Shown one piece after another: positions 3,171 through 37,581 of a DNA stretch of 64,000 nucleotides. Position 1 is the first letter of the stretch; each line of letters starts with the position of its first letter. Under the pieces are notes generated by a model that had not been told where the DNA came from, did not search any database, and saw only the letters and a list, made by a program, of their open reading frames with translations. Both the position numbers and the translations under genes were made by a program. The DNA lies in NCBI GenBank assembly GCA_964633875.1, contig CAZWKL010000005.1, forward strand, positions 12,412 through 76,411, given 5' to 3'. This DNA is from an uncultured Pseudomonadales bacterium. GTDB lineage: Bacteria > Patescibacteriota > Microgenomatia > UBA1400 > PJMF01.

Positions 3171-3199
3171 AAAAAACGCCCTCTCGTTGGGCGTTTTTT
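3171..3199. terminator. bidirectional rho-independent terminator
   Basis: AAAAAACGCCC-TCTCGTT-GGGCGTTTTTT: GC stem flanked by an A-run and a T-run, between the convergent tRNA cluster (+) and the gene at 3213..4028 (-). Confidence 0.7.
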
Positions 3200-3212
3200 C
3201 TTCCAACTGCGT

Positions 3213-4028
3213 TTACTCTTTCCACTGTGCGTTTGCCTTCTTATGATCGGCCTCATCGGCAACATCAAACCAAATTCCCTGAAAAATAAAAGCGCTCAGC
3301 TCTCCGTTTTCGGCCAGTTTAGGAAAAATGTCTGCCTCCATGCTGGCCACTTTGCCCCTGGGAATAGCCGTCAAAACCTCCGAATTTAGAACATAAATGC
3401 CGGTATTAACAATACTAATACCTTTATTGGCGCCCCTCTCCATAAAACGAATGATTTTATTGCCATGCAGAAAAGCCTGGCCAAATTTTTTCTCACTCAT
3501 TCGCGGCTTAACCCCAATCGTTGCCTTCGTATTTTCGCGCAAATGAAACTTAATCAAATCTTGAAGATTAATATCTGTCAAAACATCGCCGTGAATGACC
3601 AAAAAAGGATTGCCTGTCACATATTTTTCAGTCAATTTAAGAGCGCCGGCCGTGCCCAGCGGCTTTTTTTCCTCCACATAGGTAAGCTTCACCCCAAACT
3701 GGCTGCCATCGCCAAAAACTGTTTTAATCTGTTTTTCGTAAATACCGCCACAAACGTAAACATCAACAATTCCATGCTTCTTGAGATTTTCCAAAGTAAT
3801 GGCCAATAAAGGCCGGTTGCCAATTTTTTTCAGCGCGAGCGGAGTAGCTAATTTTCTCTTGCCACCAGCCAAAATCACCGCCATCGACACTGTTGGCTCC
3901 ATGCTGCTACGAATCAGCAACTCAATCGCGTGAGAACGATTACGCACTGCTTTGCCATCCACCAAATCATCAACCTTGGTTAAAAGCTCTCCGGGTAAAG
4001 TAATTGTCAACCTGGACTTGTGCCTCAT
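3213..4028 (-). CDS. sugar-phosphate nucleotidyltransferase with N-terminal ribbon-helix-helix-like segment
   Basis: MAVILAGGKRKLATP...(G-rich NTP_transferase signature) plus the core nucleotidyltransferase fold. The roughly 45 aa N-terminus (LTITLPGELLTKVDDLVDGKAVRNRSHAIELLIR) looks like a CopG/RHH domain. Confidence 0.7.
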   Translation of the reverse strand: MRHKSRLTITLPGELLTKVDDLVDGKAVRNRSHAIELLIRSSMEPTVSMAVILAGGKRKLATPLALKKIGNRPLLAITLENLKKHGIVDVYVCGGIYEKQIKTVFGDGSQFGVKLTYVEEKKPLGTAGALKLTEKYVTGNPFLVIHGDVLTDINLQDLIKFHLRENTKATIGVKPRMSEKKFGQAFLHGNKIIRFMERGANKGISIVNTGIYVLNSEVLTAIPRGKVASMEADIFPKLAENGELSAFIFQGIWFDVADEADHKKANAQWKE

Positions 4029-4091
4029 AGGTCATACTTTATCATACATTAGACCTGCAGCAAAATCAGTCGGGGCAAAATTCGCTTAAAA

Positions 4092-5123
4092 CTATTCCGC
4101 AGCACTGAGCTGCAGTTGCTGGTTAAAATATTGCTTCTCCATAGCTGAGCGAAAGGCATTATATTGGGCAGTAGGATTATCGGCTGTATCAAGAAAACTA
4201 AAACCGGCAAACGGCCCGGGCGAGCCTTTCAAAATAAACGGTGTCACCGCTGCCACTCTGTCATGCGACCAAATATGCTCAAGAGCGTAAACATAGTAAG
4301 CGGGCAACCAACGCCTGAGAGCAGAGCTTTCCTCCCAGCCGGTTTCAGTGATATAAACTTGCAAATCTTGCTTAGTTTTACCTGCCAAAAACTGTAGCTC
4401 ATACTCGAAACCATTCATGCCATTTTTGGCTTTTCTCTGCGGTGAGGCCGCGAAACCAGGATTAGGATAAGAGTGCGAGTTCCAAGCATCAGCATAAGCA
4501 AAAATCTCTGGGTCAAACTCATGCATCCGCGTTAAATAATTAAAAGCTTCCATAGTTTCCGGACCATTAGGAGCGGCCAAATCCATCGCTGCCGGCATCA
4601 CTACAAACGCACTGTCCACCGCGTGAGCCCAACTGCTGGCAAAACGAAAAACCCGGGCGTAATCAATCGGATCAATGACGCCACCCCATTCCTTAGCGTG
4701 ATTGACCTCGTTGTAAATAATGATGTGTTTCTGCTGAGTGGGCCACTGAAATTGACTCAAGGCATTGATCTGATCCACTGTATTTTTGCGGTTGGGAATA
4801 GTCCAGCCCTGGCCATCCATGGTAGAGGCCAGTCTGACAATAGGAATAATTCTGTTTTCCTTGGCTTCATCGAAAAACTTTTGCCACTGAGAGGTTTTGT
4901 CAATGTCCTCAAGAGTGTAGGGCACCGTCACGTAATGCCAATTTTTATCTACCTCATGCATCCGCACCAACTGCTTGGCATCCACTATTTCTTCAGGATG
5001 AAGAATATGAATACCCATCTTAGAAACATTGGCTGCGCTGACCTGAGCAGGAAACACCCACAGCCCAAAAAACAGCAAGCTGAGCAACAATTTTTTCATC
5101 ATTGTAATATTATAGGATATCAT
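4092..5123 (-). CDS. secreted glycoside hydrolase, clan GH-A (GH5-like TIM barrel)
   Basis: Signal peptide MMKKLLLSLLFFGLWVFPAQVSA. NE in IIIYNEVNH and E in ITETGWE match the acid/base and nucleophile motifs of GH-A enzymes. Confidence 0.5.
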   Translation of the reverse strand: MISYNITMMKKLLLSLLFFGLWVFPAQVSAANVSKMGIHILHPEEIVDAKQLVRMHEVDKNWHYVTVPYTLEDIDKTSQWQKFFDEAKENRIIPIVRLASTMDGQGWTIPNRKNTVDQINALSQFQWPTQQKHIIIYNEVNHAKEWGGVIDPIDYARVFRFASSWAHAVDSAFVVMPAAMDLAAPNGPETMEAFNYLTRMHEFDPEIFAYADAWNSHSYPNPGFAASPQRKAKNGMNGFEYELQFLAGKTKQDLQVYITETGWEESSALRRWLPAYYVYALEHIWSHDRVAAVTPFILKGSPGPFAGFSFLDTADNPTAQYNAFRSAMEKQYFNQQLQLSAAE

Positions 5124-23138: not shown

Positions 23139-25028
23139 ATGCGTAAATTGTTGAGAATCATCGCCGTGTTTTTTGCGGCCGTTTTTGTTTTTGGCAGAAC
23201 GCCGGTTTTGATCAAGGCCCAAACACCAAGCGTCAATGAATTCCACACCAAGCTCGTTACTACCTATCTGGTGGATCAAGCTGGTAACTCGAGGGTAAAA
23301 CATGATTACACTATTAAAAATCTCACCCCAACTGCCTTTATCAAACAATACACTCTTACCTTAGCTTACCCCAACCTTAGCAATATCGAAGTAACTGAAA
23401 GCGGTCGGAAAATCAATGCCGATATCAGTGAAGCAAAACCTCTTACCACTATTGTTATCACCTTTCCTCAGGACGTAGTTGGCGAAAACAAGATTAGAAA
23501 TTTCTCTATTGAATATGTAAACCCGGATTTAGCTTCAATCGGCGGTAATTCTTTGGAAATACACGCTCCCGAACTGGCAAATCCTGAACAATACAATGAG
23601 CATGAGGTCATTCTCGTCACCCCGATCAAGTACGGTAATCCCATTCGTTCCAACCACGCAATCGCCAACAAAACCATCACCGAACAAGGTATCAGAACTA
23701 CTTTCTACGGGCTTGGAGGCAAAGCGCTTTCAGTCTTGTTCGGCGATAAACAAATCTACTCACTGACACTCAGATACAATCTGGAAAACCTCAGTAGCTC
23801 GGCCGCGTTTACCCAAATCGCTCTCCCTCCCGATACAGCCTTTCAAAAAATGCATTATCACTCCCTTGATCCGCTACCTCAGGAAATGAAAAGAGACGCT
23901 GACGGCAACTGGATTGCCAAATACAACCTGCCTGCCAACAGCATTACCCCAGTTTACCTGACTGCCAACGCTCAGATCACTCTGGAGCCACAGCCAGAAA
24001 TAAAAGTTTTACCACCCAATCAACTCCACACCAAAAAGGCAGATTACTGGGACACTCGCAATTCCCGAGTAGCTGGTGAAGCCTCCCTCCATCGCACCCC
24101 TGAAGATATCTACAATTTTGTCACCAAAACCTTGCAATACTCGTACGATTTTGCTGCTACTCAAAATCGACTCGGCGCCGTTAAAGCTTTGGATAAACCG
24201 GATCAGGCAGTCTGTCAAGAATTTACCGACCTTTTTGTTGCCATGTCTCGAGCGAACAACATTCCTACCAGAAGACTAACTGGCTTTGCTTACAGCCAAA
24301 ACGACACTCTGCGCCCGTCCAGTTTTAATGGCGACATCCTGCACGCCTGGCCGGAATACTTTGATAATGACAAAAATTTGTGGATCCAAGTAGATCCAAC
24401 TTGGGGCAACACTACAGGCGGCGTGGATTACTTTCATCAGTTTGATCTCAATCATATAGTTTTTGCCATCAACGGCACTTCCAGCACTACCCCTTTTCCG
24501 GCCGGATCATATAAAGTAGAGGATGAAGAAACCAAAGATGTTGAAGTGACCTTTGCCAACGAGTTTCCGAAAGTTGAACCAAACTTTTCACTCAATTTCC
24601 AACCGGCCAAAGTGTTGGGTATTTCCCTGCCGGGTTTCTACAACCTCACCATTACCAACAACACTGGACAAGCGTGGTACGATATTGACGCAAGGTTTAA
24701 TTACGCTCGAGATGCAGCACAACTAAACAGAGGAGAAAACCTAGAAATTCCTGCCTTATTGCCATTTCAAACCCAAACTTTTGCCATCACGGCTCACACC
24801 CCACAGTGGCAAATTATCAATGATCTATCGGTCAGTATCGAATTAACCTCGGCAGCTAATCCTCAAACAGCAAGCACAGTACTATATGAAAGCCAAGAAA
24901 ATTACCTTAAAGCCGGACCAGCCATCATCGAACACATTAAAAACACCCAAGTGGTCGTTGGTGTGGGCGTCGGCCTTATCCTCCTTACCCTCATCGGCGG
25001 GAGTATATTGGTTTTTAGACGAACATAA
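23139..25028 (+). CDS. secreted transglutaminase-like cysteine protease superfamily protein with C-terminal TM anchor
   Basis: Signal peptide MRKLLRIIAVFFAAVFVFG. TGase core with Cys (AVCQEFTDLFVAMSRANNIPTRRLTGFAY), His (DILHAWPEYFD) and Asp (WIQVDPTWG). C-terminal hydrophobic helix VVVGVGVGLILLTLIGG. Confidence 0.7.
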   Translation: MRKLLRIIAVFFAAVFVFGRTPVLIKAQTPSVNEFHTKLVTTYLVDQAGNSRVKHDYTIKNLTPTAFIKQYTLTLAYPNLSNIEVTESGRKINADISEAKPLTTIVITFPQDVVGENKIRNFSIEYVNPDLASIGGNSLEIHAPELANPEQYNEHEVILVTPIKYGNPIRSNHAIANKTITEQGIRTTFYGLGGKALSVLFGDKQIYSLTLRYNLENLSSSAAFTQIALPPDTAFQKMHYHSLDPLPQEMKRDADGNWIAKYNLPANSITPVYLTANAQITLEPQPEIKVLPPNQLHTKKADYWDTRNSRVAGEASLHRTPEDIYNFVTKTLQYSYDFAATQNRLGAVKALDKPDQAVCQEFTDLFVAMSRANNIPTRRLTGFAYSQNDTLRPSSFNGDILHAWPEYFDNDKNLWIQVDPTWGNTTGGVDYFHQFDLNHIVFAINGTSSTTPFPAGSYKVEDEETKDVEVTFANEFPKVEPNFSLNFQPAKVLGISLPGFYNLTITNNTGQAWYDIDARFNYARDAAQLNRGENLEIPALLPFQTQTFAITAHTPQWQIINDLSVSIELTSAANPQTASTVLYESQENYLKAGPAIIEHIKNTQVVVGVGVGLILLTLIGGSILVFRRT

Positions 25029-26310
25029 TCTTGTTCTTTACGTCGGTAAAGCCAAAAACCTCAAAAAGCGAGTTCAGTCTTACACCCGCTTCGGGCAACT
25101 TTCTAACCGAATCAGGCAACTGGTGAAAGTGGCCACGAAAGTCAAGTTTAAAGAGCTGCCCAGCGAACTGGAAGCCCTACTCACGGAAGCTGAGCTGATT
25201 CGCCGCTACCAACCTCAATATAATGTTCTACTTAAAGACGATAAAAGTCCTCTTTATATTCATATTACTAACGAAATTTATCCTCGAGTCCTGCAAGTTA
25301 GAAAAAAAGAGCTTAACACCAACAATCTCAGGGGCACCATTCTTGGTCCCTTTCCGAGCGCTTACAAAGTTAAGGAAGTTTTGCAAATCGCACGAAAAAT
25401 TTTTCCCTGGTGCAACCGAGCGGGCAATCTTGAACAGAAAAACAACAAAGCCAAGTTGACTCCATGTTTTTATTATCATATTGATCAGTGCAATGGCGCC
25501 TGTATTGAAAAAATCAGCCCTCAAGAGTATCGGGAGAACATTAACCAGCTTATTATTTTCCTCAAAGGTAAAAAATCGGTTGTTACCACCCAGCTTAAAA
25601 ATGATCTCGAAGAAGCAATTGGGACCGAAAACTTTGAAGCGGCAGCGGTTTACCGCGATAAATTAACCCTAATAGACGAGGTGACGCAACCCAAAAAAAT
25701 TCTCAAGCCTGAGTTAACCACCCCGGGACTAACTGCCAAAATCGAGCAAGACGGCATTATCTACTTGCAAGACATTCTGTCTACTCACTTGGGCTTACCA
25801 AAGAAGTTTCCTCTGGAAAGAATTGAGGGTTATGATGTCAGCAACACCATGGGCACCAATCCATCGGTAGCGATGGTGACATTTATTGATGGAGTGGCCG
25901 ATCCTTCCCACTACCGGCTTTTCAATATCCGCTCCATCCAAACACCCAACGACTACCAAATGATGAAAGAAGCTATTTCCAGAAGACAAAACAACCGGCA
26001 GTGGGGCCTTCCTGATTTGCTGGTGATTGACGGCGGCAAAGGCCAGGTAAGATCGGCACTGAGTGTTTGGAGTTGGCAGGCTCCGGTCATTGGTCTGGTA
26101 AAAAACCCCGACCGACTGGTTTTGCCCATGCTTGATTGGTCTGCCAGAACTGAGAGCAGTTATTTTGACTTAAAAAACCTGCAGTATCTTGAGCTCAAAC
26201 TCAAGGGAGGCAATCCTGCCTTAAAATTATTGCAGCGTATCCGTAATGAGGCCCACCGTTTTTCCAAAAAACAGCACACCAGAAGACGGCTCAAAAGTAT
26301 GTTTGAGTGA
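24886..26310 (+). CDS. uvrC: excinuclease ABC subunit C, short form (GIY-YIG, UVR and RNase H-like endonuclease domains; no C-terminal HhH)
   Basis: GIY-YIG (GVYWFLDEHNLVLYVGKAKNLKKRVQSY), UVR-like (NFEAAAVYRDKLTLI), and the C-terminal endonuclease domain (IEGYDVSNTMG...LLVIDGGKGQV). The start is uncertain: ATG at 24886, or GTG at 24961. It overlaps the end of the upstream gene. Confidence 0.8.
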   Translation: MKAKKITLKPDQPSSNTLKTPKWSLVWASALSSLPSSAGVYWFLDEHNLVLYVGKAKNLKKRVQSYTRFGQLSNRIRQLVKVATKVKFKELPSELEALLTEAELIRRYQPQYNVLLKDDKSPLYIHITNEIYPRVLQVRKKELNTNNLRGTILGPFPSAYKVKEVLQIARKIFPWCNRAGNLEQKNNKAKLTPCFYYHIDQCNGACIEKISPQEYRENINQLIIFLKGKKSVVTTQLKNDLEEAIGTENFEAAAVYRDKLTLIDEVTQPKKILKPELTTPGLTAKIEQDGIIYLQDILSTHLGLPKKFPLERIEGYDVSNTMGTNPSVAMVTFIDGVADPSHYRLFNIRSIQTPNDYQMMKEAISRRQNNRQWGLPDLLVIDGGKGQVRSALSVWSWQAPVIGLVKNPDRLVLPMLDWSARTESSYFDLKNLQYLELKLKGGNPALKLLQRIRNEAHRFSKKQHTRRRLKSMFE

Positions 26311-26359
26311 GTCCGGTAACAAACTTGCGCGCCAAGGTCATGGCCCGTATACTGGAAAC

Positions 26360-26716
26360 ATGGTTAGGATTTTGCTTCATACCATTGTGACCTTGGGCTT
26401 GTTGGCAGTCGTGTTGCCCACAGTCAACTTTGCCAGCCTGACAGCTCTGATTTTTGCCAGCATTATTTTTGCTATTTTGTTTCACTTCATCAAACCTATC
26501 TTGAACATACTTCTTTTTCCGGTCAACTTCGTCACTCTTGGCTTATTTTCTGCTTTGATTAATATCTTTTTACTCTGGTTGGTTGAGTATCTGGTGCCGG
26601 GCTTCACCATTCAAGCCATGATTCTGTTTGGCCTGCAGTTAAGCTATTTCTGGACTCTGGCGGTTTTGTCAATGTTGATTGGTTTTACTGGCTCCATAAT
26701 TGGAAAAATAATATAA
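26360..26716 (+). CDS. DUF360 / phage-holin-4_2 family small membrane protein
   Basis: Four hydrophobic segments. LLFPVNFVTLGLFSALINIFLLWLV matches the PxxxxTLGLF core of PF04020. Start taken at MVRILLH. Confidence 0.55.
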   Translation: MVRILLHTIVTLGLLAVVLPTVNFASLTALIFASIIFAILFHFIKPILNILLFPVNFVTLGLFSALINIFLLWLVEYLVPGFTIQAMILFGLQLSYFWTLAVLSMLIGFTGSIIGKII

Positions 26717-26744
26717 AAATTAGCTAATACGGTATAATTGCACC

Positions 26745-27686
26745 ATGAAAAGCCTCTTTCTCACCGCTCTTGTTTTTTTGTTATCGACTTTTGTCTTAAG
26801 TGCTCGACTGCCTCATCAGGCTGTTGCTCAAGTGCAAGACGAACAAGTGATAGATTTGAGCGTGGCTACCGATGAGGCTGAAGCTACCGGAGAAGCCGAA
26901 ACCGCCAGCCCATCAGCTGATGTTGAGCAGAAAATTCAAGAACAGACAGACAATGACATCACGGAGAGAACTGGGCCACAGCGTAGCCGGCTAACTACCT
27001 ATCTAACTGAAAATCCACCAGCAGAACTGAGTTGGCACAATTTCCTCCAACATGCCATTTACAGCGCGGTCACCAACGGCCTATCGGCCAACATTGTGGT
27101 TTTGCTGATTCTCTTCCCGGTCATTACCTCAGTCATCGCCGCTTTCCGCCACCTTATTGGCCTCAGGGGTTTTGGCGTTTACGCGCCGGCAGTCTTGTCG
27201 GTAGCGCTGGCATCTACCGGAATCACCACCGGGTTGATTGTGTTCTTTATTGTGCTAATGACAGCCTTAATTTTCCGCTCGCTCACCAGAAAACTGCGGC
27301 TCCAGTACCTGCCTAGAACTGCCATGTTGCTGTGGGGAGTATCTTTGGTGGTGCTCCTGTTGATGATTTTCTCAGCCATGTATGAGATGACCTTTTTCAT
27401 GGCGATCAGCATTTTCCCACTGCTGATTATCATGCTGCTCACCGAAAACTTCATAGAAACCCAATTGATGAGCAGCCAATCCCAAGCCGTTCGCTTAACT
27501 ATTGAGACAGTTTTGATTGCCATTGTTGGCTCACTTATCATTGGCTCTGAAACCCTACAAAGAACAGTGATCTTAAATCCTGAAGCTACCATTCTGGGTG
27601 TGGCAGTCATTAACATTCTGGTTGGTAAGTATGCCGGCTTGCGATTTTTGGAATATTTCAGATTTGAATCAATTCTGGAGAGGTAA
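26745..27686 (+). CDS. 7TM membrane protein (7TM_transglut-like) with acidic extracytoplasmic N-terminal region
   Basis: Signal peptide, then an acidic low-complexity segment, then 7 predicted TM helices. Sits immediately upstream of the ATP-grasp gene. Confidence 0.55.
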   Translation: MKSLFLTALVFLLSTFVLSARLPHQAVAQVQDEQVIDLSVATDEAEATGEAETASPSADVEQKIQEQTDNDITERTGPQRSRLTTYLTENPPAELSWHNFLQHAIYSAVTNGLSANIVVLLILFPVITSVIAAFRHLIGLRGFGVYAPAVLSVALASTGITTGLIVFFIVLMTALIFRSLTRKLRLQYLPRTAMLLWGVSLVVLLLMIFSAMYEMTFFMAISIFPLLIIMLLTENFIETQLMSSQSQAVRLTIETVLIAIVGSLIIGSETLQRTVILNPEATILGVAVINILVGKYAGLRFLEYFRFESILER

Positions 27687-27688
27687 TC

Positions 27689-28972
27689 ATGCCCGCAGCC
27701 AAAGACATCCTCGGTCTCAACTCCCGCAATCAGCTTTTTGTTTCCCTGAATCCCGCCTCTTCGCGGAGTTTTGCTTCCTCCAAGTACGCTACCAAGCTGT
27801 TACTTGATAGCAAAGACATTCCAGTGGCCAAAATCTTCGGTTTGCTGGCCACTAATGAAGATGTCAACGACTTTGACTGGTTTTCTCTCAAGAATAATTT
27901 TGTGATTAAACCCACTAACGGCAGTGCCGGCAAAGGCATTGTGGCTTTCAAAAAACAGCTGCCTGACGGCAAACACTGGCTGGATGTTTTGGACAAAACC
28001 TGGTCGATTGATGATATTTTGTTTCACTGCTACGACATCTTGGATGGGCAGTACAGCACTTGGGGAGCTCAACACAACATTATTGTGGAAGAAAGAATTA
28101 TTACCCACCCAACAATTGCCAAATACTGTCAAAAGGGTACTCCTGACCTTAGGGTGATTGTCTTTAATTCCGTTCCTGTCATGGCTATGCTCAGGCTGCC
28201 AACAGAAGAATCCGAGGGGAGAGCCAATCTGCACCAGGGAGCCATTGGTGCTGGCGTGGATATGACTACTGGCGTCACTACTCACGCTATTACCGGCAAA
28301 GGCAAATCAATCCAATACTTGCCGGGAACCAAAAAGAAACTTAATGGTATTAAAATTCCCAACTGGAAAGACTATTTGCTGACAGCTGTCCAGGCAGCAG
28401 AAGCCGCCCATCTCAAATTTTCCGGCATTGATCTTTTTATCAGTGAAGACAGAGGACCGCTGGTGGTGGAGCTTAACGCCAATCCTGGACTTTCAATCCA
28501 ACTCGCCAACGAAGCCGGACTAAGAAGACGATTGGAAAGAGTAGCTGATCTCCAAGTCCAGAATCCCGAGCATGGTGTCAGGATTGGCCGGTCTTTATTT
28601 GCCACTATTTATGCTGATAAAATTATTTCCCAGGAAGGTTTGGCCGTCGTCAATCCCAAGGAAAAAATTATTGTCTACAGCGATGCCAAAGAGAGAATAG
28701 AAGTACCGGCGCTGCTGCACACCGGCCGCTTTAGGAGTGCGATTTCTTACAGCCTGGCACAAGATTTGGGCCTGCTGGACCCGGAAGACTTGCTTTGGTT
28801 TCAAAGAGAAAAAAGAGAGGGTATGGCTCCTGTAGTAGAAACCACCATTAAAATTAAAGACCGGAAAATCAACACTGCCATGGTTGTTTCCAAGAGACTG
28901 AATAAAACCAAGCATAAAATGGAAATTGGCCGCCGCGATCTAGCTGGCTTTTTAATAGGCACCAGCCAATAA
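27689..28972 (+). CDS. RimK-related ATP-grasp amidoligase (alpha-L-glutamate ligase-like)
   Basis: N-terminus ILGLNSRNQLFVSLNPASSR...DSKDIPVAKIF and central ATP-grasp blocks resemble the alpha-L-glutamate ligase-related family. Glycine-rich loop TNGSAGKGIV. Confidence 0.65.
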   Translation: MPAAKDILGLNSRNQLFVSLNPASSRSFASSKYATKLLLDSKDIPVAKIFGLLATNEDVNDFDWFSLKNNFVIKPTNGSAGKGIVAFKKQLPDGKHWLDVLDKTWSIDDILFHCYDILDGQYSTWGAQHNIIVEERIITHPTIAKYCQKGTPDLRVIVFNSVPVMAMLRLPTEESEGRANLHQGAIGAGVDMTTGVTTHAITGKGKSIQYLPGTKKKLNGIKIPNWKDYLLTAVQAAEAAHLKFSGIDLFISEDRGPLVVELNANPGLSIQLANEAGLRRRLERVADLQVQNPEHGVRIGRSLFATIYADKIISQEGLAVVNPKEKIIVYSDAKERIEVPALLHTGRFRSAISYSLAQDLGLLDPEDLLWFQREKREGMAPVVETTIKIKDRKINTAMVVSKRLNKTKHKMEIGRRDLAGFLIGTSQ

Positions 28973-28977
28973 TTATT

Positions 28978-29958
28978 ATGGGCATTATCCTCGACCTCAT
29001 TCCCACTAACTTAGATTCCGAAAAAGCTAAATTCTACGCTGACGCTCATTACAATCCTCAGTTTACCTATGTTAGGGAATTTACTGATGAAGAGATGAAC
29101 AAGTATGATCATCCCAAAAAAGAGTATTTTGAACATGCTCAAAAAATGCTTGAGCTGTACGGGTTGCCCTTGCTGTCGGGGGAAGTCGAGAGTTTTCCGC
29201 CAGATACACCACCTTACGCAACTCAACAGGAGGTGGAAAACTACCTTCGGGATCTGGTTGGAAAATTGGGCCTTCCCGATCTACCGGTACGTTTTTCCGA
29301 AGAATTTGGCTCCCAGATGATGTTGGTGGGAGGTAGTTTGCACATTCGCCTGCCAATTAAATTTACCACCAACAACCTCAGACATAAGTTGAATCATGAA
29401 ATTCAAACTCACTACTTGCGCCGTTACAACCAAGACTTGCAGGAGTGGAATCTTGAATCGGAAAAAAAAGACCCTCAAGCTTTCAGAACTACCGAAGAAG
29501 GTCTGGCAAATTTGCACTCTTTCGTCGAGCGCCCGGATCCGGTCATGCGTAAAACTTACCTCAATTACTTTGCTGCCTACTTTGGTCATCACGCTTCCTT
29601 CAGGCAACTCTACAACGAACTGATTGCTGTTGGCGTCAATGAACGCCTGGCCTGGAACTTGACGCTGAAACAAAAGCGGGGCTTGAAAGATACCAGCCTG
29701 CCTGGCGGCTGGTCCAAAAACCACATTTATTTTGAAGGCACGGTTAAAGTTTGGCGCTGGCTTGCAGACAGTACCAACGACCCCAGAGCTTTGTACTACG
29801 GCAGGATTACGCTTGAAGATGTGCCGCGCGTGCTTGAGTTGCCTCTTAGCCAAGACATCATTTTTCCGACTTTTTATCAAGACCTCAACTCATACCGGCA
29901 ACTGATTGATGCTATCGGGGAAATCAATAAGCTGTCGGCACTGCCGGTTTTTACCTAA
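28978..29958 (+). CDS. DUF1704 / MATCAP-like metallocarboxypeptidase (QEGLA family; atypical HExxxH)
   Basis: HEIQTH (HExxxH) zinc motif and a TTEEGLANLHSF (QEGLA-like) motif. Conserved neighbourhood with the RimK-like ATP-grasp gene. Confidence 0.6.
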   Translation: MGIILDLIPTNLDSEKAKFYADAHYNPQFTYVREFTDEEMNKYDHPKKEYFEHAQKMLELYGLPLLSGEVESFPPDTPPYATQQEVENYLRDLVGKLGLPDLPVRFSEEFGSQMMLVGGSLHIRLPIKFTTNNLRHKLNHEIQTHYLRRYNQDLQEWNLESEKKDPQAFRTTEEGLANLHSFVERPDPVMRKTYLNYFAAYFGHHASFRQLYNELIAVGVNERLAWNLTLKQKRGLKDTSLPGGWSKNHIYFEGTVKVWRWLADSTNDPRALYYGRITLEDVPRVLELPLSQDIIFPTFYQDLNSYRQLIDAIGEINKLSALPVFT

Positions 29959-30766: not shown

Positions 30767-31939
30767 ATGACCGGAAAACAAACCAAATACCAATCAAATA
30801 AGGTTCAAGCTTCACACCGGCAGCCGAAAATTAAGGTTGCGGTGGGAATGTCTGGCGGGGTTGATTCATCGCTGGCTGCCCATTTGCTGGTAGAGCAGGG
30901 GTATGATGTCACCGGAGTTTTTCTGGAGTGTTGGCGCGCACCCGGCTGCCGCAGTGATGAGGACCGTAAAGATGCCCTGGAAGTGGCGCTGGGTTTAAAC
31001 GTTCCTTTCAAAGTTTTGGATTTTAAAGCAGCTTACCGCCAACAAGTGGTGGAAAACTTCTTTGCCGAGTACGAAGCCGGCCGGACTCCCAACCCAGACG
31101 TGCTTTGCAACAAAGAAATCAAGTTTGGCCTGTTTTATGACTGGGCCATGAGTGAGGGTTTTGATTATATTGCCACCGGACATTATGCCAAAAAAGTGGC
31201 AATTGAGGCGCAAAATTTCCTGGCCATTCCTGCTGATCACGCTAAAGATCAGACTTATTTTATGCACTTGATCACTCAAAACCAACTTGATCACACTATT
31301 TTTCCTCTGCAGGAACTTAACAAAAATCAGGTTCGCACCGAAGCCAAAAAAAGAAAGATTCATGTGGCGGAGAAAAAAGATTCTGTCGGCATTTGTTTTA
31401 TCGGCGATATCAACGTGCATGATTTCCTCGAGGAGAGGCTCGGGAAAAATCCGGGCGAGGTGGTTGATACTCAAGGTAACGTCATTGGCGCTCATCAAGG
31501 GTTATGGTTTTATACTGTCGGCCAACGCAGCGGTTTTACCGTTAACCAAACTAGCCTGGTCAAACACACTGACGGCTCCACCATTACTAAACACAACATC
31601 CCGCCTTTTTATGTGATTGGTAAGGATGCAGAGAAAAACCAGCTGGTGGTTGGGTTTGGGAGCAAGACTTTTAGGGACGAGTTTAGTATTTCCGGGCTGC
31701 ACCTTATCGACCCAAAAAGTTCGTCTGTTTTGCGCGAAGAAAGGCTGAAAGTTAGAATCCGTCACACCGGCGAGTTAATTCCTTGCCAAGTTGAGGGCAA
31801 TTCTAAAGTTATTTTGGAGAAACCGACTAAAGGCATCGCGGCAGGGCAGAGCGCGGTGTTTTATCAGCAGACCGGGAATGAGATTATTTGTCTTGGGGGT
31901 GGGGTGATTGAGTTTGGTATTGAGGATCTACACGCATAA
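30767..31939 (+). CDS. mnmA: tRNA-specific 2-thiouridylase
   Basis: PP-loop KVAVGMSGGVDSS and MnmA-typical central and C-terminal blocks. Confidence 0.9.
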   Translation: MTGKQTKYQSNKVQASHRQPKIKVAVGMSGGVDSSLAAHLLVEQGYDVTGVFLECWRAPGCRSDEDRKDALEVALGLNVPFKVLDFKAAYRQQVVENFFAEYEAGRTPNPDVLCNKEIKFGLFYDWAMSEGFDYIATGHYAKKVAIEAQNFLAIPADHAKDQTYFMHLITQNQLDHTIFPLQELNKNQVRTEAKKRKIHVAEKKDSVGICFIGDINVHDFLEERLGKNPGEVVDTQGNVIGAHQGLWFYTVGQRSGFTVNQTSLVKHTDGSTITKHNIPPFYVIGKDAEKNQLVVGFGSKTFRDEFSISGLHLIDPKSSSVLREERLKVRIRHTGELIPCQVEGNSKVILEKPTKGIAAGQSAVFYQQTGNEIICLGGGVIEFGIEDLHA

Positions 31940-32879
31940 GCATTTCAATCAACCTCAACTTGAAAAATGTCCTGGTGTTAAGTAGCGCATCTTTCCATCT
32001 GTCGGGGCCTTTATCAGCCATTACTCTTTGTTCATGTTTATAACTATCTTCTAATCCTTTACCTATAAGAAACCGGGTGGGAACACCACCAATGCTGATA
32101 CCTCTCACATCTGCTGGTGATTCAACTAAACGTTGTTTGGGATTTCCTGCTTGGTCCACCTCTTCTTCATTGTACATAGACACCACTTCGCCATTTTCGT
32201 TCACTCGGATACTTTGAAGAGTTTCAACATCAGTCTCCCCATCCCTGTCTACTTTTCCGCTCAAGCCACTAAATAAATGGGCATCTATTACTTCTTTCCC
32301 AGCTTCGTCTAAGATACTAAATTGTCTAAACAAGTATGAAGTAAGCCCTCTCGGATGCGGTTCGGCATTACTTTCATTAATTGTTGATAACTTGATAATT
32401 CCTTTTTCATTCAGTTCTTTTAGGGCAGCCTCAACTTCTTCCAACATATCCACTGGGACCAGTAAATCAACATCATTAAATGTGTCTCCCTCTACTCCGA
32501 ACTCTTCTTGATGCACCATTTCGACAGGAATCAAATGCCCTTGATGTAGGCTTAAAGCCCATAAATAAATAGCTACAGATCGAGTAATAACCAAGGGCAC
32601 ATCATGTTTTTCAAAAACTTCTTGCACAGGACCTATAATTTTTAATAGACGTTTTAAGACCTCATAGAGAGCGTATTCTTTCTCGATTTTCCGAACTTTT
32701 TCTTCTGGAATACCTGGCTCATGTCTCAAATCAGAAACTAGTTCAAATTCAGGAAACTTAGGAGAGAAATCTGGTTCTTGGGACAAATCAGGTGCTGGTA
32801 TTTCGCGCACTAACGTAAGTCCTGGCACTGCAGACCCTTGTTCTCGATTTTCATCCACAGGACCATCTATTTCTGACAT
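31884..32879 (-). CDS. hypothetical acidic protein with possible minimal nucleotidyltransferase-like motif
   Basis: FGVEGDTFNDVDLLV resembles the hG[GS]x(n)DhD core of Pol-beta-like NTases. The N-terminus is acidic. Convergent 56 nt overlap with mnmA. The local sequence looks AT-richer than the surroundings. Confidence 0.5.
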   Translation of the reverse strand: MSEIDGPVDENREQGSAVPGLTLVREIPAPDLSQEPDFSPKFPEFELVSDLRHEPGIPEEKVRKIEKEYALYEVLKRLLKIIGPVQEVFEKHDVPLVITRSVAIYLWALSLHQGHLIPVEMVHQEEFGVEGDTFNDVDLLVPVDMLEEVEAALKELNEKGIIKLSTINESNAEPHPRGLTSYLFRQFSILDEAGKEVIDAHLFSGLSGKVDRDGETDVETLQSIRVNENGEVVSMYNEEEVDQAGNPKQRLVESPADVRGISIGGVPTRFLIGKGLEDSYKHEQRVMADKGPDRWKDALLNTRTFFKLRLIEMLMRVDPQYQTQSPHPQDK

Positions 32880-32974: not shown

Positions 32975-33377
32975 ATAAATCCTCATAGAGATCAAGTCTC
33001 CGCCAACTGGCGGACGAAACTAGTCTCCCCAAACAATTTAAGTTGTGCATTAGCCAAGATGATAGAGAGAATCAAACCTCTCTGTTTTTTGCTGATTCAA
33101 TTGGGAAAAGAGGATTGGCGGTAATTTAAGACCGCCCAGCTATTTAAAAAGTGAATATCTGACATAAACATGGTGGTAGAACCGCGACACAAAAGTGTGA
33201 GAAGCGGAACACTATCATGTTTTTTATGACAGTGATCCGTCATATTTGAACTTTGAGTTCAGTAAAGACTGCGAGTAATTCGCAGCACAAATACGTATAA
33301 CGTAAACACAATGAGCACAAATTCAAACCTCAATTAAGTCAATAGCTTTTTAGACTTCGGTTTAAAAAGTTAAAGAA

Positions 33378-33440
33378 ATTCTTTATGAGAGTTTGATCCG
33401 CCGCAGGCGGATGAACGCTGGCCAGCTTTTGCCGGTCCAA
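33378..33440 (+). other. degenerate duplicate of the 16S 5' end carrying a TCCGCC-GCA-GGCGGA hairpin (leader 'decoy')
   Basis: TTTATGAGAGTTTGATCC and GGATGAACGCTGG are identical to 16S positions 1 to about 40 at 33466 onward. The native CTGGCTCAGG is replaced by GCCGCAGGCGG, which keeps a hairpin. Confidence 0.7.
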
Positions 33441-33473
33441 CGTAACAAACAATCATGAAGACAGCTTTTTTAT

Positions 33474-33509
<36 letters not shown>

Positions 33510-34505
33510 TGTGCCTTAGGCATGCAAGTCGAACGGGAAGTCTCCTTCGGGAGACAGAGAGTGGCAGACGGGTGAGTAACGCGTAGGAATCTACCCAGTA
33601 GTGGGGAATAGCCCACCGAAAGGTGGGGTAATACCGCATACGATCGCAAGATGAAATCTACCGCAAGGTGGAGCTATTGGAGGAGCCTGCGTGCTATCAG
33701 CTAGTTGGTGGGGTAATGGCCTACCAAGGCGACGACGGCTAGCCGATGTGAGAGCATGATCGGCCACAAGGCTACTGAGACACGGAGCCTACACCTACGG
33801 GTGGCAGCAACCGGGAATATTGCGCAATGGACGAAAGTCTGACGCAGCGACACCGCGTGTGGGAAGACGCTCTTCGGAGTGTAAACCACTGTGGCGAGGG
33901 ATGAAGTTCTGACAGTACCTCGCTAGAAAGCACCAGCTAACTACGTGCCAGAAGCTTCGGTAATACGTGGGGTGCAAGCGTTATCCGGATTTACTGGGCG
34001 TAAAGGGTCCGTCGGCGTCCCTGTAAGTCTCTTGTTCAAGCCCGAGGCTCAACTTCGGAAAGGCAAGGGAAACTGCAAGGATAGAGTTTGTTCGAGGAAA
34101 CTAGAATTCTTGGTGGAGGGGTGAAATCCGTAGATATCAAGAGGAATACCATGCGCGAAGGCAGGTTTCTAGGACATAACTGACGCTCAGGGACGAAAGC
34201 TTGGGTAGCAAATGGGATTAGAGACCCCAGTAGTCCAAGCTGTAAACATTCCTTGCTAGTTGTCCGCCTTTGGGTGGATGACGTAAGCTAACGCGTTAAG
34301 CAAGGCGCCTGGGGAGTACGACCGCAAGGTTAAAACTCAAAGGAATTGACGGGGGAGCGCACAACCGGTGGAGCATGTGGTTTAATTCGATACAAAGCGA
34401 AAAACCTTACCCGGATTTGACATGTACCTGCACGTCTGCCGAAAGGCAGACTTCTTCGAGAGTGGTACACAGGTGATGCATGGCTGTCGTCAGCTCGTGT
34501 CGTGA

Positions 34506-35393
34506 ACAAAAAACTCGCGACCCGTACTAGAAATGGTACGAGAAAAATCTGGCTCATATCGGTGAAGTCCGGTTATCGCAAACTGTTTGCAAGGAAATTC
34601 TTGTAAACTTGCCATAATGGATAATACCGAGGGAAGTCGGGTAATTACGAGTGTCTTTAGAGCTCGGAAAAATCTTGAGCTCTGTTTAACTAATCGTCAA
34701 ATGTCCATAGTTCTAGGTTCAATTCTCGGTGACGCTTATGTCCATCCAAAAGGAAAAATCTGCTTTGAACACTCAGAGCAGCAAAAAAATTACCTTTTAT
34801 GGAAGTATGTAGAACTAAAGAATTTAGCTTATCCTCAAGTAGCAAAAGTTACTCGTAAGGATAGGCGGAACAACAAACAGACAATTAGTTGGCGGTTCTT
34901 CTTGAGGCAATATTTTCGCCCCCTGAGAGCTGCTTTCTATTTCAAAGGCAAAAAAGTAGTACCAGATGATCTTAATCTTTGGTTTACGCCCTTGCTTTTG
35001 TCGGTCTGGTACATGGATGACGGATACCTTGATCAAGGAAAATACCCAGTTTTTATGACTGAGTGCTTTGATAACAAAAATATAAGTCTTCTAACAGAAA
35101 TGTTAAGAGAAATATTTAAACTGCAAAGCATTATTACTTCCAAGAACAGGATCCGTATAGTTAGTAAAAGCAGAACACAATTCTTTTCACTGATAGAGCC
35201 GCATATTACTAAAGACCTCAAATATAAATTACCCTGACCCCGTAACGACTGGAAGCCGCTTATCAGGCGGTGGAAGATCCGCCCCAGGCGGATAACACGC
35301 CAGCCCCTATTTTCTGTAATTGATTTCTGTAATTGATTATAGAAAAAGGGTGAAGGTATAGTCTGGCATTTAGAGTAATCTAGATGGTTTTGG
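34506..35393 (+). mobile_element. 16S intron 1 (about 0.9 kb, probably group I) with homing endonuclease ORF
   Basis: The sequence between 16S exon GTCGTGA and the resumption GACGTCTATTTAAGTATAGTAACGAGCGCAACCC. Boundaries are approximate to within a few nt. Confidence 0.7.
34587..35237 (+). CDS. LAGLIDADG homing endonuclease (double-motif) encoded in 16S intron 1
   Basis: Motifs LGSILGDAYV and VWYMDDGYL. The start may be internal (MSIVLGSILGDAY). Confidence 0.8.
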   Translation: MQGNSCKLAIMDNTEGSRVITSVFRARKNLELCLTNRQMSIVLGSILGDAYVHPKGKICFEHSEQQKNYLLWKYVELKNLAYPQVAKVTRKDRRNNKQTISWRFFLRQYFRPLRAAFYFKGKKVVPDDLNLWFTPLLLSVWYMDDGYLDQGKYPVFMTECFDNKNISLLTEMLREIFKLQSIITSKNRIRIVSKSRTQFFSLIEPHITKDLKYKLP

Positions 35394-35700
35394 AGACGTC
35401 TATTTAAGTATAGTAACGAGCGCAACCCTTGCCGTATGTTATACGTGTCATGCGGGACTGCCTGTGCATTGCACAGGAGGAAGGAGAGGACGACGTCAAG
35501 TCAGCATGTCCCTTACATCCGGGGCTACACACATCCTACAATGGGGTAGACAACAGGTATAGCAACAGCGCGAGCTAGAGCCAATCCTCTAAACTACTCC
35601 TCAGTTCGGATTGGAGGCTGCAATTCGCCTCCATGAAGCCGGAATCGGTAGTAATCGCAAATCAGCAGGTTGCGGTGAATACGTTCTCGCTCCTTGTACA

Positions 35701-36606
35701 AATAAATATGCGCCTTCCGCGCATACTATCCAGTTAGTTTAAATCTAACGTGTCATAAGCAAGTAGACACAAGCAAAATTGCAAGCCTATCCGGGTAACC
35801 GGCAGGCTGAAGGGCAAAAGTAGCGGTGGTCAGCTTGGAGTTTAAACGGCATAGTGCTGTGAGGATCCTGCGTACAACTGGAGAACTCACTTGCTAACAC
35901 AAACAGCACTCTGTATGTGGGCTCGAGATGATCGCGAATGGATAGTATGTGAACGAAGGGAGATCCTGTTTGCTCTCTATTTGATGCAAAGAAAATAGAG
36001 TATAGTGAAGGTAACAACACTAAATTAGTAAGCAGGAAGTCTGCAGAGGTCATAGTATCAGCGCCTTGGCGTTGAGAAGGACCAAACTTAGTGTCATGAA
36101 ATTGTCTCCTGAATATGTGTGCGGGTTTGTTGATGGCGAAGGTTGCTTCACTATCACCATTGCCAAGCACAAACAGAAAAAACTCGGCATCGATGCCCGT
36201 CTTCATTTTGAGATTGAAGTGCGAGCAGATGATATTGAAATTCTGAGAAGAATTCAAGAAACGCTGGAGTGTGGCAGAATATATCATCTCAATTATGAGA
36301 GGTATGGCTGGCATCCCCATGCAGAATTCAAGGTTTCTTCTTTAAAGGACATTAGAGAAAAAGTAATACCATTCTTTCAAAGGTATCCACTTCAGGCAAA
36401 GAAAAAGGTTGCTTTTGACCAATTCGTTAAAGCAGCAAAGATTTTTGCCGAAAAGCGACACCTAACCTCAGAAGGTATTAAAGAATTAAAACAAATCAGG
36501 AAACAAATGAATATATATAGACACCAAGGGTTCGCCACGGTGCGGGAAAACCGCGCGCCGGGCGGCGAGAGACACATGAATCAGTGATGACATGATGATC
36601 TCAGAA
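35701..36606 (+). mobile_element. 16S intron 2 (about 0.9 kb) with homing endonuclease ORF
   Basis: Insertion between CCTTGTACA and CACTGCCCGTCAAGCC. Boundaries are approximate. Confidence 0.7.
36096..36587 (+). CDS. LAGLIDADG homing endonuclease (single-motif) encoded in 16S intron 2
   Basis: CGFVDGEGCFTITI is the LAGLIDADG motif. The ORF track extends the start to 36066. Confidence 0.8.
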   Translation: MKLSPEYVCGFVDGEGCFTITIAKHKQKKLGIDARLHFEIEVRADDIEILRRIQETLECGRIYHLNYERYGWHPHAEFKVSSLKDIREKVIPFFQRYPLQAKKKVAFDQFVKAAKIFAEKRHLTSEGIKELKQIRKQMNIYRHQGFATVRENRAPGGERHMNQ

Positions 36607-37122
36607 CACTGCCCGTCAAGCCAGCAAAGTCAGCAACGCCCGAAGCGGGTGACCGTAATTATCTTTTGATGAAGCGGCCCTTCTACGGCGAGGTTGGCGA
36701 TGAGGACTAAGTCGTAACAAGGTATCCGTACTGGAAGGTGCGGATGGATCACCTCCTTTCTAAGGAGATGGGTAGGAGCAATCACGACCTCCTGTTTCCC
36801 GCGCTTAGTAATAAGCGCAAAACAAATTAAAAAAATCCCGTGGCTATCATACCCGGGCCGTGTCCGCCGGAAGCGGATCGGCTCTACCACCATGTTTGTG
36901 TCAGAATTCACTTAAACATTTTCCAAACTTTTGTTAATTTCAGCAAGAATTGGTCAAGCCAGTGAGCTAGTTTAATGATATCTTCTATATCAAAACATAT
37001 CTTTATACATCATTTTTCCTTGATACATCAACCAGAAAAATTTCAGCCGCAATTTAGCAGTCTTTTTTCTTGTCTGCTAATTACTACTTCACACCATCTC
37101 ATAATCTAGTTACAATAACTGA

Positions 37123-37581
37123 GTGCCAAGTAAAATCAAAAACTACACCCTAGTGTTTCTGTTTAATGAGGATCTTTCTAAGGTAGTGCTCATCAAGAAA
37201 ACTCGGCCTAAGTGGCAGAAAAATAAGTTCAATGGCGTTGGTGGAAAAATTGAGAATGGAGAAAAAACTGTTGAAGCTGCAGCTCGGGAAATAAAGGAGG
37301 AAACAGGTTATGTCATTAATAATAAGTCAAAATTAATAAAAATTGCCAGCATGGAATCGAATGAGTGGAAAGTACATATCTTTGCCGCTCAAATATATGA
37401 AGATGTAAAAATGCACGAAGCCACAGAAGAAGGAGAGGTTCAGTGGCACCAAACAAGCAATCTGCCCACTAACTGTATAGATAACTTGCCTTGGTTAATT
37501 CCATTATGCCAAAATAAACTAAAAGAAAATTACATTGATAGATGCCATATTTTTTACAAAAACGACACCGAGCATCAGTAA
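37123..37581 (+). CDS. NUDIX hydrolase
   Basis: NUDIX box GGKIENGEKTVEAAAREIKEETG. GTG start. Confidence 0.8.
   Translation: MPSKIKNYTLVFLFNEDLSKVVLIKKTRPKWQKNKFNGVGGKIENGEKTVEAAAREIKEETGYVINNKSKLIKIASMESNEWKVHIFAAQIYEDVKMHEATEEGEVQWHQTSNLPTNCIDNLPWLIPLCQNKLKENYIDRCHIFYKNDTEHQ

Follow-up and report, generated by a model that had tools for sequence, protein, structure and literature searches.

A membrane-associated cassette of a Patescibacteria bacterium with a RimK/RloC-like ATP-grasp ligase and a MATCAP-type carboxypeptidase as candidate partners in C-terminal amino acid addition and removal

Genetic data have been published for RloB and RloC of the RloABC operon of Pseudomonas aeruginosa (Lormand et al., mBio 2025, PMC12239564). 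In Pseudomonas, both proteins are important for biofilm formation, tolerance of stress and susceptibility to antibiotics, and the roles described for the Rlo system include hypo-osmotic tolerance, cell shape and biofilm (PMC12239564). Polyglutamate is cleaved by RloA as well as by RimB, and the loss of RloA is suppressed by the loss of RloB or RloC; the genetics point to a peptidase that works against the product made by the pair of ligase and seven-transmembrane (7TM) protein (PMC12239564). The MATCAP/TMCP enzymes trim acidic C-terminal tails of tubulin and shorten polyglutamate chains (PMC10499314). Here, a cassette of three genes is described at positions 26745 to 29958 of a 64,000-nucleotide stretch of contig CAZWKL010000005.1 (the window), which stems from a Patescibacteria (Candidate Phyla Radiation, CPR) bacterium, as indicated by the source names of homologues and by an interrupted 16S rRNA gene. 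The cassette encodes a 7TM protein, an ATP-grasp ligase and a MATCAP-type peptidase. We see about an even chance that it is a CPR variant of the Rim/Rlo ligase-plus-peptidase systems at the membrane, in which a MATCAP-type carboxypeptidase took over trimming while a retropepsin domain was retained for binding or dimerisation.

The cassette consists of three open reading frames (ORFs), all on the plus strand, at 26745-27686 (313 amino acids), 27689-28972 (427 amino acids) and 28978-29958 (326 amino acids). The gaps are only 2 nt between the 7TM and ATP-grasp genes and 5 nt between the ATP-grasp and MATCAP genes. These ORFs had been proposed as a 7TM / ATP-grasp / DUF1704 cassette in an earlier annotation made from the DNA letters alone (the sequence-only reading), and both the coordinates and the three family calls were confirmed. 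All Pfam matches exceeded the gathering cut-offs, with PF14402 7TM_transglut at 1.3e-24, PF14397 ATPgrasp_ST at 3.5e-60 and PF08014 MATCAP at 4.3e-15.

The linkage of the three genes was examined in about 160 related loci, i.e. in 80 species-level GTDB genomes anchored on the ligase and in 80 metagenome loci. Four loci of the first sample had no room downstream, and 76 loci were informative for MATCAP. The 7TM gene was found directly upstream of the ATP-grasp gene in every locus with room, and in all 80 species-level loci the ligase carried the extra C-terminal domain discussed below. A MATCAP gene came next after the ligase in 54 of the 76 informative GTDB loci and in 25 further metagenome loci, and in 47 of the 54 it started between -34 and +16 nt from the ATP-grasp stop. 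Otherwise, the third position in the first sample was occupied by a standalone retropepsin (four loci) or by RimK-type second ligases or RmuC (20 loci). The metagenome loci gave the same picture as the species-level sample. The trio of 7TM protein, ATPgrasp_ST protein (420-427 amino acids) and MATCAP was also present in three distant MATCAP-family lineages (L166, L167 and L175), so that the gene linkage proposed by the sequence-only reading recurs in other genomes.

The four loci with a standalone retropepsin were scattered among the MATCAP loci in a neighbour-joining tree without support values. As retropepsins are known antagonists of RimK-type ligases and occupy the position of MATCAP in these genomes, the reading of the cassette as a ligase plus a carboxypeptidase is strengthened. 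The addition and removal of C-terminal residues had already been suggested from the letters; the exchange of retropepsin and MATCAP supports this suggestion, and the function itself is predicted from gene content and homology. The locus thus offers a natural experiment, in which the class of the peptidase changes against a constant background of ligase and membrane protein.

The third gene (28978-29958) encodes a putative zinc metallocarboxypeptidase of 326 amino acids without a signal peptide. PF08014 was matched with 56 bits against a gathering cut-off of 27. The family profile of the protein matched human MATCAP (KIAA0895L, 7z5g) at 7.3e-61 across the whole catalytic domain, and BLASTP aligned the two proteins end to end with 31% identity (E 5e-41). 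The window peptidase corresponds to the catalytic domain only (human residues ~140-462) and lacks the N-terminal microtubule-binding extension. The motifs HEIQTH (29395-29412), putatively zinc-binding and catalytic with H140, E141 and H145, and TEEGLA (29491-29508), whose E173, E174 and G175 include a putative third metal ligand, were invariant in 18 homologues. Both are aligned with human motifs, HEIQTH with the human HEIGTH, and the EEG motif has been described for KIAA0895L (PMC10499314). The placement of the third gene in DUF1704 and the two motifs noted by the sequence-only reading were therefore correct.

The sequence-only reading had further equated the locus with a predicted bacterial neighbourhood of ATP-grasp and QEGLA/DUF1704 proteins. 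The Pfam family PF08014 agrees with this, but the QEGLA family does not: the TIGR02421 cut-off of 338.65 bits was missed by far (56.8 bits), and the motif is EEGLA and not QEGLA. Judged by these matches, the third protein is a member of the MATCAP family and not of TIGR02421. In an exhaustive search with the window peptidase, vertebrate MATCAP1 and MATCAP2 scored 118-125 bits in one stretch, compared with 91-100 bits in two stretches for verified bacterial proteins of the TIGR02421 type. The reciprocal comparison agreed (88-137 bits for vertebrate MATCAPs, 58-94 bits for the TIGR02421 type). Sorting of family representatives by length into eukaryotic, CPR and QEGLA groups was too crude, as eukaryotic fragments were mixed in, and verified family members were compared instead. 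Among the prokaryotic proteins found in this analysis, the CPR cassette peptidases were the closest relatives of eukaryotic MATCAP. The three proteins closest to the TIGR02421 model showed no linkage to ATP-grasp genes. A literature search on DUF1704, QEGLA and PF08014 returned only Plasmodium gene identifiers, and in the literature searched no paper linked MATCAP with a bacterial ATP-grasp protein; an older (2009) comparative-genomics paper may describe the neighbourhood. The view that the neighbourhood was experimentally uncharacterised does not fully hold, because genetics of RloB and RloC have been published (PMC12239564).

The second gene (27689-28972) encodes an ATP-grasp ligase fused to a retropepsin-like domain. 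A total of 4237 homologues were found, and the best 120 of these were nearly all 418-431 amino acids long and at least 59% identical. The AlphaFold 2 (AF2) model of the 427-residue protein (mean predicted local distance difference test score, pLDDT, 86) contained two domains connected by a disordered linker at residues 307-316. The RimK/RloC-type amidoligase domain lies at 27698-28570. PF14397 covered residues 13-285 with 204 bits against a cut-off of 31.4, and the top NCBIfam match was TIGR02291 rimK_rel_E_lig ('alpha-L-glutamate ligase-like') at 4.8e-69, with 232.8 bits against a curated cut-off of 314.2. The RimK family models remained below their cut-offs (TIGR00768, 59.2 vs. 143.4 bits; PRK10446, 25.6 vs. 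331 bits), as did the LysX model (31 vs. 276 bits). The best fold matches in Foldseek were the RimK structures 5zct and 7qys (E 3e-10), followed by cyanophycin synthetase and LysX/ArgX. The RimK-related placement of the ligase given by the sequence-only reading is hence supported by the best family and the best fold, with the family score below the curated cut-off. The residues K74, D248, E261 and N263, which are typical ATP and Mg residues of ATP-grasp enzymes, were invariant among the homologues. No match to the tubulin tyrosine ligase (TTL) family PF03133 was obtained for the window ligase at E<=0.01, and the matches in relatives were sub-threshold only.

Residues 7-305 of the ligase were 34.5% identical to a 314-residue 'alpha-L-glutamate ligase-like protein' encoded in a Legionella plasmid operon. 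The order of this operon, retropepsin / inactive-transglutaminase-7TM / ligase, is of the canonical rloABC type. A profile of the CPR C-terminal domain did not detect the RloA-like protein of this operon at E<=1e-3.

The additional conserved domain at residues ~317-427 of the ligase (28637-28969) had been overlooked by the sequence-only reading. Pfam gave no match for the C-terminal 139 amino acids of the window protein, and a PDB profile search with the C-terminal domain yielded only chance matches to homeobox proteins. In the AF2 model the domain is separate, follows the disordered linker and consists mainly of beta-strands with two short helices. Weak Pfam matches to retroviral-type aspartyl proteases were seen in 11 of 18 homologous C-terminal domains, and sub-threshold matches to PF05618 in relatives whose fused domain retains DTGA. 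The domain was established as a retropepsin only through the standalone proteins encoded downstream of the ligase in four related loci. These proteins of 119-143 amino acids matched the C-terminal domain profile at 1e-9 to 1e-15, carry K[VI]DTGA and reached 33.6-45.6 bits with PF05618, the RimB/RloA retropepsin family (gathering cut-off 27). The standalone CPR retropepsins also matched the solved retropepsin-like structures 9g59, 9g58 and 2pma. When the fused domain was aligned with the standalone PF05618 proteins in hhalign, a probability of 98.8% (E 7e-17) was obtained, and the window HTGR (28718-28729) stood opposite the catalytic DTGA with His344 at the Asp position. By this alignment, the ligase is fused to a degenerate retropepsin domain of the RimB/RloA type, and the fused domain of the window is predicted to be catalytically dead. 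The window has His at the Asp position, most relatives have Asn, and N, H, K or S stands there in 73 of the 78 MATCAP loci. The D48N variant of RloA has served as a catalytically inactive control (PMC12239564).

The first gene (26745-27686) encodes an RloB-like 7TM protein of 313 amino acids without a transglutaminase domain, as judged from PF14402, the NCBIfam RloB model and the AF2 model (pLDDT 83). PF14402 spanned only residues 115-310, and the RloB model NF052267 aligned only to the 7TM part (model positions 297-506, 65.6 bits vs. a cut-off of 900). Neither Pfam nor NCBIfam indicated a transglutaminase domain; instead, the N-terminal region consists of a helix and a disordered acidic linker. 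The hydrophobic helix, a signal peptide or anchor, is encoded at 26754-26810 (hydropathy peak at residues 4-22, AF2 helix at 2-20), and the acidic linker at residues 28-54 had pLDDT values below 50. The extracytoplasmic module of the 7TM family appears to be interchangeable because in the distant lineage L167 a 7TM protein of 512 amino acids (3176-4714 of that locus) has N-terminal PKD domains in place of the acidic linker or transglutaminase domain.

The seven-helix transmembrane domain (27087-27674, delimited by the Pfam span and hydropathy) contains the polar residues R135 H136, E234 N235, E254 T255, P279 E280 and N290, which were invariant in an alignment of 76 sequences. The C-terminal tail, GKYAGLRFLEYFRFESILER (27624-27683), is predicted to face the cytoplasm by positive-inside reasoning. 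It is a candidate substrate or docking element in view of its covariation with MATCAP.

For the covariation analysis, counts were pooled over both samples, and loci without MATCAP or a standalone retropepsin served as the comparison group. The fused domain retained the Asp in 5 of 78 MATCAP loci, compared with 58 of 63 comparison loci. The last residue of the 7TM tail was Glu in 60 of 78 MATCAP loci and in 2 of 61 comparison loci. Glu was found within the last two residues in 69 of 78 versus 3 of 61 loci, and the last six residues were net acidic in 56 of 78 versus 1 of 61. As background, about 16% of the long ORFs at these loci end in Glu. All four standalone-retropepsin loci had Asn in the fused domain. 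L175, which was examined afterwards, fitted the pattern, with NTAR in the fused domain, a tail ending in ...IIDTEE and a MATCAP gene. The acidic tails varied in sequence and length between subclades (...IIEEEE, ...DDQSE, ...SQEEEE, ...PGLEE), which suggests that the Glu end was maintained and not inherited once. Two proteobacterial RloB-type tails were also examined; they were not acidic and were paired with DTGA retropepsins.

Taken as a variant of the Rim/Rlo systems, the cassette would operate as follows. The RloB-like 7TM protein would hold the ligase-plus-peptidase module at the membrane. The cytoplasmic RimK/RloC-like ATP-grasp domain would extend a C-terminal carboxylate by amino acids, probably by L-glutamate, and the MATCAP-type zinc carboxypeptidase would remove the added residues in place of the active retropepsin of related loci and of the RimK-RimB and RloC-RloA pairs. 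The dead retropepsin domain, with Arg347 gained beside the old active site (xTGR), would persist as a module for acidic-peptide binding or dimerisation. Binding of acidic peptides is conceivable because RloA binds polyglutamate via conserved Arg and Lys residues (PMC12239564). A secreted substrate, which the sequence-only reading had also allowed for, is unlikely, as neither the ATP-grasp protein nor MATCAP has a signal peptide.

As to the substrate, it is tentatively suggested, from covariation only, that the adjacent 7TM protein is modified on its cytoplasmic, Glu-ended tail and is tuned by the length or charge of this tail. The window tail ends in ...ESILER and is thus not Glu-ended; losing the last Arg would expose Glu, as in the detyrosination of alpha-tubulin. 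More speculative, and in our view rather improbable, is a 'tail code' in which the 7TM tail is reversibly extended by the ATP-grasp ligase and trimmed by MATCAP, with eukaryotic MATCAP descending from a bacterial de-glutamylase that acted opposite an ATP-grasp ligase. The cassette offers a concrete substrate candidate for RloB/RloC-type systems, namely the 7TM protein's own tail.

Several observations weigh against this reading of the cassette and its tail. The association between MATCAP and the loss of the Asp consisted mostly of one deep split and one nested subclade in the neighbour-joining tree, and because it reduces to so few splits, Fisher p-values overstate the independence of the loci. 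The four exchanges of retropepsin for MATCAP, scattered in a tree without support values, are better evidence for equivalence of the two peptidases than this association. A strict prediction that loci with Asp in the fused domain have no MATCAP failed, since P0029 and P0031 have both DTGR and MATCAP; L108, L117 and L167 likewise have MATCAP despite a retained Asp, and five loci have neither Asp nor MATCAP. L166 combines MATCAP with a basic 7TM tail, and 18 of the 78 MATCAP loci, the window included, are not Glu-ended. The ATP-grasp gene is present whatever the tail, and the tail can therefore not be the universal substrate of the ligase. Finally, the ATP-grasp protein scored below the curated cut-offs of TIGR02291 and RimK, so that glutamate can only be called the probable amino acid ligated.

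Retention of the ligase at loci with basic 7TM tails would be explained if the cassette served the synthesis and export of a polymer or peptide. In that case the ATP-grasp protein would make a free poly-amino acid (poly-alpha-glutamate or a cyanophycin-like polymer) or modify an envelope component, the 7TM protein would translocate or anchor it, and MATCAP would limit or recycle the cytoplasmic product. RimK makes free poly-alpha-glutamate (title of 5zct; PMC12239564), cyanophycin synthetase was among the top fold matches of the ligase, and in L166 a CphA-like RimK+Mur-ligase gene lies right after MATCAP. RloA, the partner protease in Pseudomonas, is located in the periplasm and the phenotypes are envelope-related (PMC12239564), and a Shewanella mutant in a 7TM-transglutaminase gene over-produces vesicles. 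However, the peptidases of the window lineage (MATCAP and the fused and standalone retropepsins) have no obvious signal peptides, glycosyltransferase and exporter genes are absent from the vicinity, and in structure comparison the 7TM model resembled no known transporter. The acidic-tail covariation would also be left unexplained, and we regard this explanation as unlikely. The sharing of the third position by endo-acting, polyglutamate-cleaving retropepsins argues for the removal of a Glu-rich product, and so against a one-way maturation in which MATCAP would not oppose the ligase and would act once on a partner, e.g. by removing one terminal residue from the 7TM tail or the ATP-grasp protein for activation or docking. 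MATCAP does take a single terminal Tyr off alpha-tubulin (PMC10499314), and the window tail ends in E-R and others in E-Q, E-G or E-K-K-S; but most MATCAP loci already encode a terminal run of Glu that needs no clipping, and such maturation seems quite improbable.

Little probability is likewise given to a RimK-like enzyme that modifies a soluble target, e.g. ribosomal protein S6, and for which the 7TM protein is no more than a regulator or a means of localisation. RimK is the nearest solved structure, and RimK-type second ligases adjoin many relatives. The RimK family model, however, reached only 59 bits against a cut-off of 143, and the ligase gene always adjoins and nearly overlaps the 7TM gene, which points to a complex at the membrane. 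A link to S6 was not seen, the S6 tails themselves being outside the comparison. Least probable of all is mere synteny of three functionally unrelated neighbours in a compact genome. The surrounding UvrA-TGase-UvrC-PF04020 ... MnmA block, which is clearly of mixed function, is shared by about 50 of 80 species as well, but the trio survives the loss of the flanking synteny and recurs with unrelated flanks in L166, L167 and L175. In addition, the third position changes between two peptidase classes, and three features covary.

The transglutaminase-core protein encoded at 23139-25028 (PF01841, 3.9e-15) ends 1.7 kb upstream of the cassette. The sequence-only reading had drawn attention to it as an active secreted protein, and it does have a signal peptide, a C-terminal membrane anchor and the catalytic triad motifs Cys357, His401 and Asp417. 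As a core component of the cassette it was rejected: it belongs to the UvrA-TGase-UvrC synteny of the lineage, seen in 49 of 80 loci, and is lost where this synteny breaks, while the 7TM-ligase pair persists. Between the transglutaminase and the cassette lies a PF04020 gene ('phage holin 4_2', four transmembrane segments) at 26246-26716, 28 nt upstream of the 7TM gene and in the same place in 51 of 80 loci; it may be a fourth component or mere synteny. A perfect TATAAT is present at 26733-26738, 6 nt before the 7TM start codon. Consensus-based scans for promoters and terminators gave no signal above chance level.

The public call of the UvrC gene starts at 25123 and lacks a GIY-YIG match. The GIY-YIG domain (Pfam residues 38-113 of the long ORF, region 24886-25130) requires a start at or before 24961. 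The transglutaminase gene, which stops at 25028, would then share the last 68-143 nt of its 3' part, the membrane-anchor region, with a UvrC gene read in another frame.

Downstream of the window cassette TruB follows directly. Many relatives (L005, L083-L085, L071-L082 and L166) have extra genes after the cassette, which are absent from the window: one or two RimK-family ATP-grasp ligases, a methyltransferase and a Peptidase_M29 aminopeptidase. The gene after MATCAP in L166 encodes an 843-residue RimK+Mur-ligase protein resembling cyanophycin synthetase. A 331-residue acidic ORF at 31884-32879 on the minus strand, with no Pfam match on record, overlaps the end of MnmA antisense and is conserved in identical public contigs.

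The 16S rRNA gene of the window is interrupted (33468-37300). Rfam model positions 9-873 were matched at 33476-34309 and positions 925-1374 at 35263-35687, and the ~950 nt between the two parts hold a LAGLIDADG_2 ORF (about 34617-35237). After these parts follow a match to group II intron domains D1-D4 (36000-36082) and a LAGLIDADG_1 ORF (about 36096-36587). A clean 3' end of the 16S rRNA (model positions >1374) could not be placed after 35687 within 33300-37300, and a permissive scan gave one gapped match of positions 1-1533 at 33468-34797. Dozens of GenBank records of metagenome-assembled genomes with a CPR-type locus (L003, L008-L012 and others) are titled 'uncultured Pseudomonadales' or 'Gammaproteobacteria', and other such records Vitreimonas, Limisphaerales or TM6. 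Such titles seem to be placeholders or labelling errors, as the gene content is of the Patescibacteria type.

With the RloABC operon, the cassette shares an ATP-grasp protein like alpha-L-glutamate ligases, which has a 7TM protein of PF14402 as its neighbour and a peptidase as its partner. Of three structural features of the Rlo system, the RloC-type ATP-grasp protein is found in the window, while the transglutaminase domain of the 7TM protein and the separate, secreted, active retropepsin are not. The window 7TM protein lacks the inactive transglutaminase domain altogether. RloA is a separate secreted enzyme with a catalytic DTG, whereas the window retropepsin is fused to the ligase and predicted to be cytoplasmic and dead; the putative active peptidase is an unrelated metalloenzyme of the MATCAP type. 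Most MATCAP loci of the window clade have an acidic 7TM tail, unlike the two proteobacterial RloB-type proteins examined.

In the RimK-RimB pair, the partner of the ligase is a cytoplasmic retropepsin of PF05618, which binds it and counters its action. Residues are added there to a protein C-terminus with a final Glu (that of S6), and RimK was the best structural match of the window ligase. The window system differs in its score far below the RimK family cut-off, its presumed tethering to the membrane, its fused and apparently inactive retropepsin and the lack of a visible link to S6. LysX and ArgX, which use the C-terminal Glu of a partner protein as acceptor, were among the top fold matches of the ligase. 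In contrast to the LysX/ArgX-LysW systems, the window cassette has no gene for a small carrier protein and no biosynthetic genes nearby. TIGR02421 QEGLA proteins ('flavohemoglobin expression-modulating') belong to the same Pfam family, PF08014, as the window peptidase, but the latter is closer to vertebrate MATCAPs, and the three closest TIGR02421-type proteins are not encoded beside an ATP-grasp gene.

In the tubulin code, MATCAP/TMCP1 and TMCP2 act alongside TTL/TTLL ligases. The peptidase family of the cassette is the same, with end-to-end collinearity and the HExxxH and EEG motifs at the identity given above. Here, too, the peptidase is paired with an ATP-grasp amino acid ligase, and acidic C-terminal tails would be the target class. 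The window enzyme differs in lacking the microtubule-binding extension, its ligase is of the RimK/RloC and not the TTL type, and tubulin is absent, with the 7TM protein of the membrane as the candidate target instead. A bacterial operon that joins an amino acid ligase to close relatives of human MATCAP provides a simple system for the reading of acidic tails by such carboxypeptidases and a lead on the origin of the eukaryotic enzyme. The cassette may thus represent in bacteria what the add-and-trim chemistry of the tubulin code is in eukaryotes.

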